Origin: Eledone cirrhosa | Taxonomy: Eukaryota | DNA length: 64,000 nucleotides | Assembly: GCA_964016885.1 (NCBI GenBank) | Contig: OZ024746.1 | Coordinates: 26,846,001-26,910,000, forward strand | Reading direction: 5' to 3' | In this document: positions 700 through 3,029 of the stretch, in pieces | Layout: every line of letters begins with the position of its first letter | Position numbering within the stretch: the first letter of the stretch is position 1 | The notes under the pieces: model-generated | The model's database searches: none | The model's input: only the letters and a program-made list of their open reading frames with translations | Told to the model about the DNA's origin: nothing | Position numbers and translations under genes: made by a program

Positions 700-980
700 A
701 TTGGCAATATACATTGGTTTTATGTCTCTCAACATGGATGACATTGATCCATGGATTACCTATACAATCTACAACAACAACAACTGAATTATCTGATATA
801 TCTGATATAAAAACTGAAATAGATACGGCATTGACGTTAACAAAAAGAACCACAGCAGCCGTAAACAATACTTTGATTAATTATGTAAGTTAAGAATTCA
901 TTACTTTTCCCAATCTTTTCTTACTACCTCTCTCTCTTACTCTCTCTCTTTCTCTCTTTATTTTTCTATCTTTATCAATT

Positions 981-1051
<71 letters not shown>

Positions 1052-1269
1052 CTCACTCTCTCACTCTCTCTCTCTCTCTTATGTAAGTTAAGAATTCTTT
1101 TTCTATCAATTTCTCTCTCACTCTATCCTAATTTATATTACTGCCTATCTCTCTCTCTCTCTATATATATATATATTTTTAAGAATATTTATTTGTTTCT
1201 TTTACCGGTTTCACAGTTCTTATGCTTTTCAAAAGTAGAATTGAGATGGAGGGTTGTTGTTTTTCTCGC

Positions 1270-1364
<95 letters not shown>

Positions 1365-3029
1365 TGTGTTTGTGTGTGTGCGTGTGTAATAATCGTATCG
1401 TAATATAATAAAACACAAAAGTTTAGAATAACTGAATGCTATCAACCTCCATATGTTTTAATAGTTAACTTCACACTCAGATGATTATTTATAATAGATA
1501 TATTAGTATTGTAGCAAGAGTTCCCTCCCTTGTTATGACATTCACGTCGGGGTCACCACTTTAGGAGGGCAGAACCCTTTTTTGTCATTTCCGTCCGGAG
1601 ACCCTATAAAAGGGACAGGTCAGAGCGATCTCACTCTCTCGCCTCCTGAATCCCAAAGTGGTAACAACACCTGCGACCTTGTCATGAGATGACTCCTCTC
1701 TCATTTTCCTTCGCCACTCAAGAAGAATGCCACCGGCAGCCTAAGAACCTAAGAAGATGTTAACACCTCCAAGAGAAGATCTCTCCTTTTCTCCACACAC
1801 TTCAGCCTAGGAGTTGTGACCAACGGGTAACCATTTATTTATATTAATCCATTTGACTTCTGTGAAGTAAAACCTTGTCACAACACACACCGGCATTTAT
1901 TGTCATTTCTGATAATGCATATATGTACACCGATACTAATCTCCTAAAGTATAATCTAAATTAAAATAATGTGTTCCATATATCATGTGTCAGACTCTCC
2001 ATCCTATCTCATAAAGTGTTATATATTTTTCTACAGTGTAACAATACTCCATTGCTGTTTGCTAAAAGCTGTCCACAATTTATAAACAAGTTACTCCACA
2101 ATATGGATGTTAAATTTCCACAGATGAATATTCAGGACAATATCACCGTCAACAACATTGATTTATTAAAGGTTTGTATATATATATTTCTATCATTAGC
2201 ACAATATCATAAAATTAAGACAAAACAATATATTAGCTTTGAACATCTTATGTTTATTGTCTCATGAACTCATAATACATTTTATAGAAATGACAGTGAT
2301 TCTGAAATATATAATTTCTCACAATTCTTCATTACAGATGTCTCTGTTCAACATGTCTACAACTCTTAATAAATATGTTGTTGTGATGAAGAATCAGGTG
2401 AAGAGAGAATATGACAATCTGTGTGCTCCTGCCACACGTATAGGAGCACAGTGTTACTACCCAGCTGCTTGTTCTAAACTCACACGAACATCAGATGCTA
2501 TATTCTATTGTTATCTAAGACAGACTGTTTATTACTTGTTTGATCTGAAAATTCTACTAAGTTTACCAGTAAGTATTGATAATATATCCTAACTGTATTC
2601 TCACATTATTTCTATGTTGTCTACTATTTAGGTTATGTCATCATCATGGTAAATCATTGTTAATTGATTTGATATTTCCTATAATGAAATATAATGAATG
2701 AAATTTCTACAGTAGATAATTTATATAGGAATCATACTACTAACATGTACGTTAAGTAACAACAATTCTTTGATAATACATATTAGATCATTAATATCAT
2801 ATGTATATATATAAGATTATAGCATTATATTTTAACCCGATATATATTTTCTTGTTTTCAGATATTTCAGTTGTCTTCGAAAGTCCAAAACAATGAGGAT
2901 GTGAATGAGAGTCTCTTTGTACCAACAGATATTCCAATCATTGAACATCGATGGTTTACCATGGTTACACTACATACTCTTCTTGAACATATAAACCATA
3001 TTCAACAAATACTTAAATCATACATGTGA
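700..3029 (+). CDS. 5'-partial spliced gene for a secreted ~239-aa protein, putative long-chain four-helix (IL-6/G-CSF-like) cytokine; exons 700-884, 2037-2171, 2338-2568, 2862-3029; first coding exon not found in the window
   Basis: Four exons have canonical AG/GT sites (ctcctccag|ATTGG...TAT|gtaagt; ctacag|TGT...AAG|gtttgt; attacag|ATG...CCA|gtaagt; ttttcag|ATA...TGA). They join into one stop-free frame: xWQYTLVLCLSTWMTLIHG-LPIQSTTTTTELSDISDIKTEIDTALTLTKRTTAAVNNTLINY/CNNTPLLFAKSCPQFINKLLHNMDVKFPQMNIQDNITVNNIDLLK/MSLFNMSTTLNKYVVVMKNQVKREYDNLCAPATRIGAQCYYPAACSKLTRTSDAIFYCYLRQTVYYLFDLKILLSLP/IFQLSSKVQNNEDVNESLFVPTDIPIIEHRWFTMVTLHTLLEHINHIQQILKSYM*. Hydrophobic signal peptide, several N-x-S/T sequons and 6 mature Cys. 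The gene model is well supported; the cytokine call is inference. Confidence 0.8.
1531..1885 (+). mobile_element. Probable solo LTR in the intron of the secreted-protein gene
   Basis: GC-richer island bounded by TGttatgaca...tgtcacaaCA (10-bp inverted termini, 1 mismatch), with a TATA box (ctataaaagg, ~1604) and an AGTAAA signal near the 3' end. No clear target-site duplication. Confidence 0.45.

Follow-up and report, generated by a model that had tools for sequence, protein, structure and literature searches.

A tandemly arrayed octopus gene predicted to encode an IL-6/gp130-type four-helix cytokine

A five-exon gene of the octopus Eledone cirrhosa, present in an array of 31 copies, is predicted, on a structural model of a relative, to encode a secreted four-helix cytokine of the IL-6/IL-11/LIF type, which likely acts as a ligand for a gp130/Domeless-type JAK-STAT receptor. 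The gene was analysed in the window, a stretch of 64,000 nucleotides from contig OZ024746.1 (G000:C6:26846001-26910000) in a 3.0-Gb genome. The cytokine reading draws on structural matches of the predicted fold, on feature neighbours in the ESM Atlas (a search that is independent of the model), and on gene structure, splicing and sequence constraint. A cytokine fold for the product is nearly certain in our judgement, and homology to the class I helical cytokines is very probable. By predicted fold and by gene structure, the product falls among the long-chain class I helical cytokines; judged by its sequence, it is not an IL-6 or G-CSF in the strict sense (PF00489).

Gene structure and transcription

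The features of the window copy lie on the forward strand:

700..884, + strand: coding exon 2, entered in phase 1 from exon 1; remainder of the predicted signal peptide, a Thr-rich spacer and predicted helix A
885..2036, + strand: intron 2, phase 0; 1152 bp in the window copy, compared with a range of 291-373 bp across the 29 remaining complete copies
2037..2171, + strand: coding exon 3; Cys62-x10-Cys73, a predicted AB mini-helix, a long AB loop with FPQM and the start of helix B
2338..2568, + strand: coding exon 4; predicted helix B, a 23-residue BC link with Cys135, Cys145 and Cys151, and helix C with Cys164
2862..3029, + strand: coding exon 5; predicted CD loop, helix D and the stop codon
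3030..3539, + strand: probable 3' UTR, with AATAAA at 3534 and transcription to at least 3084
5835..6060, + strand: pseudogene fragment, a broken relic of exon 2 with the acceptor lost and an internal deletion

All four exons in the window are bounded by AG acceptors and GT donors, and the introns between them measure 1152, 166 and 293 bp. When joined, the exons give 61, 45, 77 and 55 codons followed by a stop, or 238 amino acids counted from the first whole codon. An earlier, sequence-only reading of this DNA had proposed the same four-exon join, and its coordinates, exon sizes and single open frame were reproduced. That reading had also proposed a phase-1 entry followed by phase-0 introns, and had suggested that exon 1 be found by RNA-seq. 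Exon 1 was located in the genome sequence upstream of the window, as ATG plus T followed by GTAAGT, at G000:C6:26845506-26845509. It lies 494 bp before position 1, and its distance to position 700 is 1194 bp. The same tiny exon was found in all 30 complete copies of the array, and the paralogs and named relatives start likewise. Because exon 1 contributes an ATG and one base, the precursor is 240 amino acids long and the intron phases are 1,0,0,0, in line with the proposal. Exon 4 is the best-conserved exon of the gene.

In vertebrate genes of the IL-6/IL-11/G-CSF type, the three introns that follow the first are in phase 0. The octopus gene is of this type, with five exons, a tiny first exon and phases 1,0,0,0. 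The available part of PMC3271213 describes five exons for the IL-6 gene and a first intron 7 bp after the ATG for IL-11.

Four public runs (X1-X4) were compared with positions 1985-3700 of the window. X4 behaves as RNA and X1-X3 behave as DNA, none of the sources being recorded as RNA; X1-X3 are possibly the assembly's own sample. In X4, one 775-nt contig skips 166 and 293 nt, which are introns 3 and 4, at GT..AG ends, and X1-X3 read through the introns. The contig has a loose 5' end of 186 nt, the last 30 nt of which equal the end of exon 700-884. The junctions that were to be checked in reads are therefore crossed exactly at introns 3 and 4, with the end of exon 2 included, by one contig from one study. 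Positions 2364 and 2538 of the window copy read otherwise in this contig, both synonymous changes, and over exons 3-5 the contig is identical to one of the 30 copies, a copy other than the window's. Therefore, it documents transcription and splicing for the array rather than for the window copy specifically. Contig depths were not taken as expression levels; in X1-X3 a depth of about 120-160 over the gene, with 2.4-10.7 for several minor contigs, fits a multi-copy locus and gives no copy count.

The regulatory motifs lend no weight to immune induction. ATTTA occurs 5 times in the 3' UTR as compared to 4.5 in shuffled sequence, with no excess. A STAT (GAS) site is absent from all 30 promoters, and a kB-like site is found in one of the 30 at one mismatch. 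A CRE-like site is present in 28 of 30 promoters and is missing from the window copy and from paralog L060. The ARE, kB and STAT motifs stand at chance level, and a mainly immune role is tentative, at slightly under an even chance.

Predicted fold and coleoid relatives

The product is predicted to carry a 20-residue signal peptide and to mature to a chain of about 25 kDa with N-glycans. The signal peptide was called by eye, from hydropathy and from the relatives; the N-terminus is hydrophobic in the window protein and in its relatives, and the maximum 19-residue hydropathy in the mature part is 1.32. Five N-glycosylation sequons were counted, where several had been claimed. One cysteine, at position 8, belongs to the signal; Cys62 and Cys73 form the C-x10-C pair where exon 3 begins, and exon 4 contributes four more, at 135, 145, 151 and 164. 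This distribution bears out both the C-x10-C pair at an exon junction and the four further cysteines in a helical exon that had been read from the sequence. A Cys62-Cys73 disulfide would fasten the mini-helix to where helix A ends, while the four exon-4 cysteines would form two disulfides that staple the 23-residue BC link.

Proteins were searched by a word-indexed search and by full HMMER against 1.84 billion representatives. HMMER returned 23 matches, three of which (P0026, P0030 and P0031) are saposin-like artefacts that share the same short region and were dropped as spurious after inspection of P0026 alone. Records were consulted for ten of the new HMMER matches, three of which are Logan entries with no name. 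The relatives have 25-57% identity to the window protein and were found only in coleoid cephalopods. The named ones looked up are from Octopus (O. sinensis LOC118763923/4, LOC115213514 and LOC115212847; O. bimaculoides LOC106876457 and LOC106873702), Argonauta (A. hians GAB1607246.1) and Sepia (S. pharaonis CAE1289331.1), and are annotated as 'uncharacterized' or 'hypothetical' with no function or domain. In an alignment of 18 rows, three of the exon-4 cysteines are invariant and the fourth is nearly so, and the four-cysteine loop between helices B and C is common to the family. Pfam scans at E<=1 with 7 and 16 family queries gave no match to any cytokine family, and the whole-Pfam scans gave none to the Unpaired family profile at the same threshold. 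A search of PDB sequences with two profiles likewise gave no cytokine match. A sequence-level link to vertebrate cytokines was found neither in these searches nor among the 1.84 billion proteins, where the family is coleoid only.

An AlphaFold model was made of P0002, an Argonauta relative with 57% identity to the window protein over 235 residues, from an alignment of 12 rows with the four window exons among them. The model has a pLDDT of 78.9 and a pTM of 0.76. Four long helices at 27-63, 101-133, 157-180 and 205-231 (37, 33, 24 and 27 residues), a mini-helix at 72-82 and long AB and CD links give it the features of the long-chain class I fold. When mapped onto the window gene, helix A falls in exon 2, helix B begins at the end of exon 3, exon 4 holds helices B and C, and helix D is in exon 5. 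The up-up-down-down topology was taken from superposition rather than from inspection of the coordinates, with 147-162 residues superposing on IL-6, IL-11 and LIF at 2.6-3.1 A.

VIA-align was used to compare the model with 48,161 chains. The best match is to IL-11 (Z 15.1, rmsd 2.6, 154 residues aligned), followed by IL-6 (Z 15.0, rmsd 2.6, 147 aligned), CLCF1 (Z 14.9), LIF (14.8) and CNTF (14.5), with rmsd values of 2.5-3.1 A among these five. Every one of the first eight ranks is a gp130-family ligand with a Z of at least 13.2, helical cytokines fill all ranks down to 29, and the first non-cytokine appears at rank 30 with Z 7.6. Helical models can score Z of about 14 with no clear relative; because the ordering is clean and the gap to the first non-cytokine is wide, a chance helical match is argued against. 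An interferon was considered and set aside, given the phase-1 first intron and a best interferon Z of 10.2 versus 15.1 for IL-11. Foldseek ranked LIF, IL-12, prolactin, G-CSF and IL-27 at the top, the best two rows being LIF, with TM scores by target of up to 0.74; no Foldseek match reached E<=0.001, the best being 0.072. Folding and structure searching had been suggested as a check, and on the model of this 57%-identical relative it returned four long helices with the IL-6/gp130-ligand family as the best matches. A single-sequence fold of a more distant member, P0028, had a pLDDT of 47 and a best fold-search Z of 4.6, too poor to judge.

A feature search of the ESM Atlas with P0006 as query points the same way. 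Clusters carrying IL6, Hormone_1, IL12, GCSF, IL11 and LIF_OSM are neighbours of the query at 0.89-0.92 and share 189-208 of the 256 features with it, and all 10 named matches fall in one clan. The second-ranked match is a mainly molluscan cluster in which 11% of members carry IL6 (PF00489), and Hormone_1 ranks third. A search restricted to unnamed clusters peaked at 0.85 and is a lead only.

The likeness to IL-6 at the level of sequence came out weaker than the earlier reading had it. The signature of the IL-6/G-CSF/MGF family, C-x9-C-x6-G-L-x2-[FY]-x3-L in the available text of PMC3271213, is absent from the window protein and from all 18 relatives. A loosened signature, set after the alignment had been seen, fits the second half, helix B, in 14 of 18 rows, a weak match. 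In IL-6, the aromatic hot spot of site III is Trp157, where helix D begins, according to the part of PMC7378365 available. A helix-D Trp had been claimed as its counterpart, but of the 17 relatives that have any residue in this column only 11 carry it. With placement taken from the range ends of the VIA-align match (232 to 183), and if helix D is gapless, this Trp probably sits near IL-6 residue 161, one turn after Trp157.

The same fold could instead belong to a circulating hormone or growth factor, used much as growth hormone, prolactin or leptin are, that acts through a short class-I receptor in growth, reproduction or senescence. That the Hormone_1 clusters rank third by features, that placental lactogen (Z 12.8), growth hormone (10.6) and leptin (10.4) are among the structural matches, that the immune signal in promoters and UTR is not above chance, and that the site-III Trp is not established would all suit a hormone. 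We consider it rather unlikely, given that gp130-family ligands take the first eight places among the structural matches and score about 2-4.5 Z above the hormones, and that LIF takes the best two Foldseek rows.

The tandem array

Within C6:26.45-26.85 Mb, exon 4 is matched 31 times at an amino-acid identity of 96-100%, and the window gene is the last of the 31 copies in this 400-kb array. In 30 of the 31, the four exons are present with canonical splice sites and no internal stop, and these intact copies fall into 27 different coding sequences, which encode 19 different proteins. Spacing between copies is 5.5-23 kb, mostly 11-13 kb, and the whole repeat unit of about 12 kb recurs at roughly 93-98% identity. 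No other intact gene was seen in the one unit of about 12 kb that was examined. The array is an addition to the sequence-only reading. An assembly artefact was judged unlikely, given 27 distinct coding sequences among 30 copies, 29 distinct intron-2 sequences and no gap inside the array; unit lengths also vary from 10 to 20 kb.

Among the 29 copies of equal length, variant codons are synonymous at 14 of 152 sites and non-synonymous at 23 of 527 sites, an excess of synonymous variants with a one-sided binomial p=0.025. Mean pS is 0.019 (1.9%), pN is 0.0067 and pN/pS is 0.36, for pairs that are not independent because the copies are related. The array copies are under purifying, not diversifying, selection. 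Copies that lie farther apart in the array are no more diverged than close ones (Spearman 0.07, p=0.19), as expected under unequal crossing-over or conversion. Unequal crossing-over together with gene conversion would hold one product at high gene dose, and the array would then yield much product, or yield it fast, instead of many distinct ligands. The simplest role for the array is to raise dose, since its copies are homogeneous and show purifying instead of diversifying selection.

Eight more paralogs were found, on C4 and at other places on C6. A tree was built from a 75-residue segment of exon 4 with 34 rows, into which 4 of the 30 array copies were taken. Its starred clades are the array, the four C4 copies, and six proteins from Octopus vulgaris, sinensis and bimaculoides; three Argonauta proteins group with 98/94 support, and the deeper forks are left open. 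The separate clades therefore suggest that young local expansions recur in octopods. Low-copy paralogs extend back to cuttlefish.

Thirty identical copies are not obviously needed for a picomolar signal, which counts against the cytokine reading. Alternatively, the cytokine fold may have been co-opted for a bulk exocrine product (saliva, skin mucus or egg coat) acting outside the body or on other organisms, with the array supplying mass. The 31 near-identical copies and the separate young expansions in the E. cirrhosa genome, in Argonauta and in Octopus species speak for this, and a sturdy secreted protein would be well served by the additional invariant cysteines and the five sequons. However, the homogeneity of the copies and their purifying rather than diversifying selection, the low-copy paralogs that reach back to cuttlefish, and a gland link that has no tissue support make such a role unlikely.

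A further alternative, very unlikely in our view, is that the gene encodes one half, the alpha chain, of a heterodimeric cytokine in the style of IL-12 p35, IL-27 p28 or CLCF1, which depends on a soluble receptor-like partner to be secreted or active. The matches to CLCF1 (Z 14.9), IL-27 (13.6), IL-23 (12.6) and IL-12 (11.7), and the IL12 clusters at 0.90-0.91, are compatible with it. However, the six cysteines of the mature protein are an even number and therefore leave no obvious free cysteine, and a partner gene was not seen in the one 12-kb repeat unit examined. It is scarcely probable that the protein is an unrelated helical bundle whose likeness to cytokines arose convergently or from a biased structure predictor, as the absence of sequence homology to named families, the shallow 12-row alignment and Foldseek E>0.07 might suggest, given 147-162 residues at 2.6-3.1 A, a gap of more than 7 Z to the first non-cytokine, a language-model search that agrees without the model, and the concurrence of exon number, phases and helix layout.

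Receptor pathway and comparison with known systems

As a secreted IL-6/IL-11/LIF-type cytokine, the protein would use the faces of its helices to bring about dimerisation of a gp130/Domeless-type receptor, as gp130 cytokines do, and this would then activate JAK and STAT. The receptor-binding sites of gp130 ligands are placed on helix faces in the available part of PMC7378365. Exon-wise searches of the genome did not locate a Domeless/gp130-type receptor gene, a result that cannot be read as absence, and because no such gene was found the receptor step is one that we infer. Pfam families PF09240, PF06328, PF09067 and PF25552 gave nothing credible in the genome, the PF25552 match being non-coding and the PF09067 match containing three stops. 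A loose WSXWS pattern has over 130,000 matches in the genome; a tight pattern has 31, and FN3-like sequence was seen in none of the 30 that were translated. One giant gene dominated the fn3 search, and eight other fn3 loci inspected by eye held no cytokine receptor. A STAT_bind search was blank, as were its controls. A JAK-type FERM_F1 exon is present at G000:C4:23.98 Mb.

Elsewhere in molluscs, an IL6R-like receptor, JAK and STAT occur together, with IL-6 confined to vertebrates, according to the available part of a 2026 survey that used BLAST at >=30% identity (PMC13203501). As far as the accessible text of PMC8226699 goes, no IL-6 superfamily member was found in invertebrates by sequence search. 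The parts of two other papers that were available report that the JAK-STAT pathway term is enriched in the white body of female Octopus maya (PMC6522055), and name IL-17 transcripts among the cytokines of octopus haemocytes (PMC4199593).

There is about an even chance that cephalopods have IL-6/gp130-type cytokines truly homologous to the vertebrate ligands, with a gene structure in common, that these are the missing ligands of the molluscan IL6R/Domeless-JAK-STAT pathway, and that octopods have more than once amplified one member into young arrays serving a very high dose, with a BC staple that is not known from vertebrate cytokines. No description of the family, or of a molluscan IL-6-type ligand, was found in a literature search with subscription journals mostly and supplements wholly outside its scope, and a search by 11 gene and protein identifiers of the coleoid relatives returned no paper. 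As far as searched, the cephalopod family, its cysteine loop and the 31-copy array are new and undescribed. The question of the missing ligand in molluscs becomes directly testable with one recombinant protein. If the cytokine reading is true, the five-exon IL-6-type gene would date back to the bilaterian ancestor, and there would be a way into how octopuses form blood cells, heal wounds and regenerate. A second puzzle is why the dose of a signalling protein would be selected, given 31 near-identical copies.

The closest known systems are the vertebrate gp130 cytokines IL-11 (8qy4), IL-6 (1alu), CLCF1 (8d7h), LIF (7n0a) and CNTF (1cnt), and also G-CSF. The octopus protein has in common with them a predicted four-helix bundle, its size, a predicted N-terminal signal, a Cys pair directly after helix A and an AB-loop mini-helix, and the genes have in common five exons with a tiny phase-1 first exon. 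The octopus protein differs in having 11-15% identity to these cytokines, no Pfam match, no IL-6/G-CSF/MGF signature, a site-III Trp that is not established, and a 23-residue BC link with four near-invariant cysteines. We know of no vertebrate member with a cysteine-stapled BC link. Vertebrate gp130 cytokine genes are mostly single copy, whereas the octopus gene is present as 31 near-identical tandem copies.

Drosophila Unpaired 1-3 and the Aedes Upd-like protein, as ligands of Domeless, are likewise secreted invertebrate proteins beyond the reach of BLAST. The mosquito Upd-like protein activates JAK-STAT, according to the available part of bioRxiv 10.1101/2025.09.21.677592. The role proposed for the octopus family is alike, as a JAK-STAT ligand, with the difference that the function has been tested in Upd and is one that we infer for the octopus family. 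The octopus family has no Pfam match of any kind, and therefore none to Unpaired.

Type I interferons are a case of a helical cytokine kept as a multi-copy cluster. The octopus array resembles such clusters in this respect, but the interferon fold scores lower, with a Z of 10.2 at best. The octopus gene also has phases 1,0,0,0, in contrast to the phases 0-0-0-0 given for the ancestral interferon gene in the accessible part of bioRxiv 10.64898/2026.05.30.728932.

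Layout of the array and promoter of the window copy

The cytokine-like genes, a five-exon family with predicted secreted IL-6-like four-helix products, form an array on contig C6 (OZ024746.1) of Eledone cirrhosa, in which 28 minus-strand copies lie between plus-strand copies at both edges, two on the left and the window copy on the right.

C6:26453017-26849029, 28 copies minus, the rest plus: array of 31 cytokine-like gene copies
C6:26845355-26845390: TATA box and kB-like 10-mer, about 125-150 bp upstream of the ATG of the window copy
Window 7268-7467: assembly gap of 200 N, 4 kb downstream of the window gene

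In most units of the minus strand there is, in addition, an inverted pseudo-copy, collapsed by deletion such that exon 5 begins directly after the first part of exon 2. Promoter and exons 1-3 are missing from the copy at C6:26817391, and Cys145Tyr, at a conserved exon-4 cysteine, is present in one array copy. Additional copies could be hidden in the gap.

The kB-like 10-mer immediately precedes the TATA box, and both align between the window copy and the paralog L060; by count, neither the TATA box nor the 10-mer is in excess over chance (P about 0.11-0.12).

Paralogs outside the array

C4:128.16-128.22 Mb: L056-L059, four near-identical paralogs spaced about 20 kb apart
C6:12.41-12.45 Mb and C6:10.51 Mb: L060-L063, four older paralogs
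C19:9.92 Mb: L064, a unit of about 270 bp with the 5' half of exon 4, present in five tandem copies
C19:23.87 Mb: L065, a single decayed exon-4 relic

The C4 group is a second young expansion of the family, with 63% identity in exon 4 and, in all four members, a stop four codons ahead of the usual family end. The older C6 paralogs share an identical exon-4 acceptor position, and exon 1, located for three of the four, consists of three codons plus one base.

Other loci of the window and genome

Window 33516-61734, plus: SNF2-family helicase gene, large and spliced, with SNF2-rel_dom at 42285 and Helicase_C at 53667
Window 8641-11775, 13177-13815, 16362-16673, 19770-24961 and 35316-37760: mobile elements
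C4:23982968-23983174: L101, one exon with a JAK-type FERM_F1 (E 6.6e-12) and a weak FERM_F2
C10:12.89-13.03 Mb, minus: more than 100 consecutive FN3-coding matches

The helicase gene, which we take to be similar to RAD54L2/ARIP4, is the neighbour of the array on the right. Among the mobile elements, LINE-type reverse transcriptase frames were recognised by eye; the others are a Tc1/mariner-type transposase and a GIY-YIG endonuclease fragment. L101 is probably the JAK gene, and the FN3 run is apparently a single giant FN3-repeat gene.

Relatives in Octopus vulgaris

In two predicted Octopus vulgaris proteins, P0001 and P0007, the exon 3/4 unit occurs two or three times in series, almost unchanged; both proteins are probably gene-model fusions that span a tandem array similar to that on C6.
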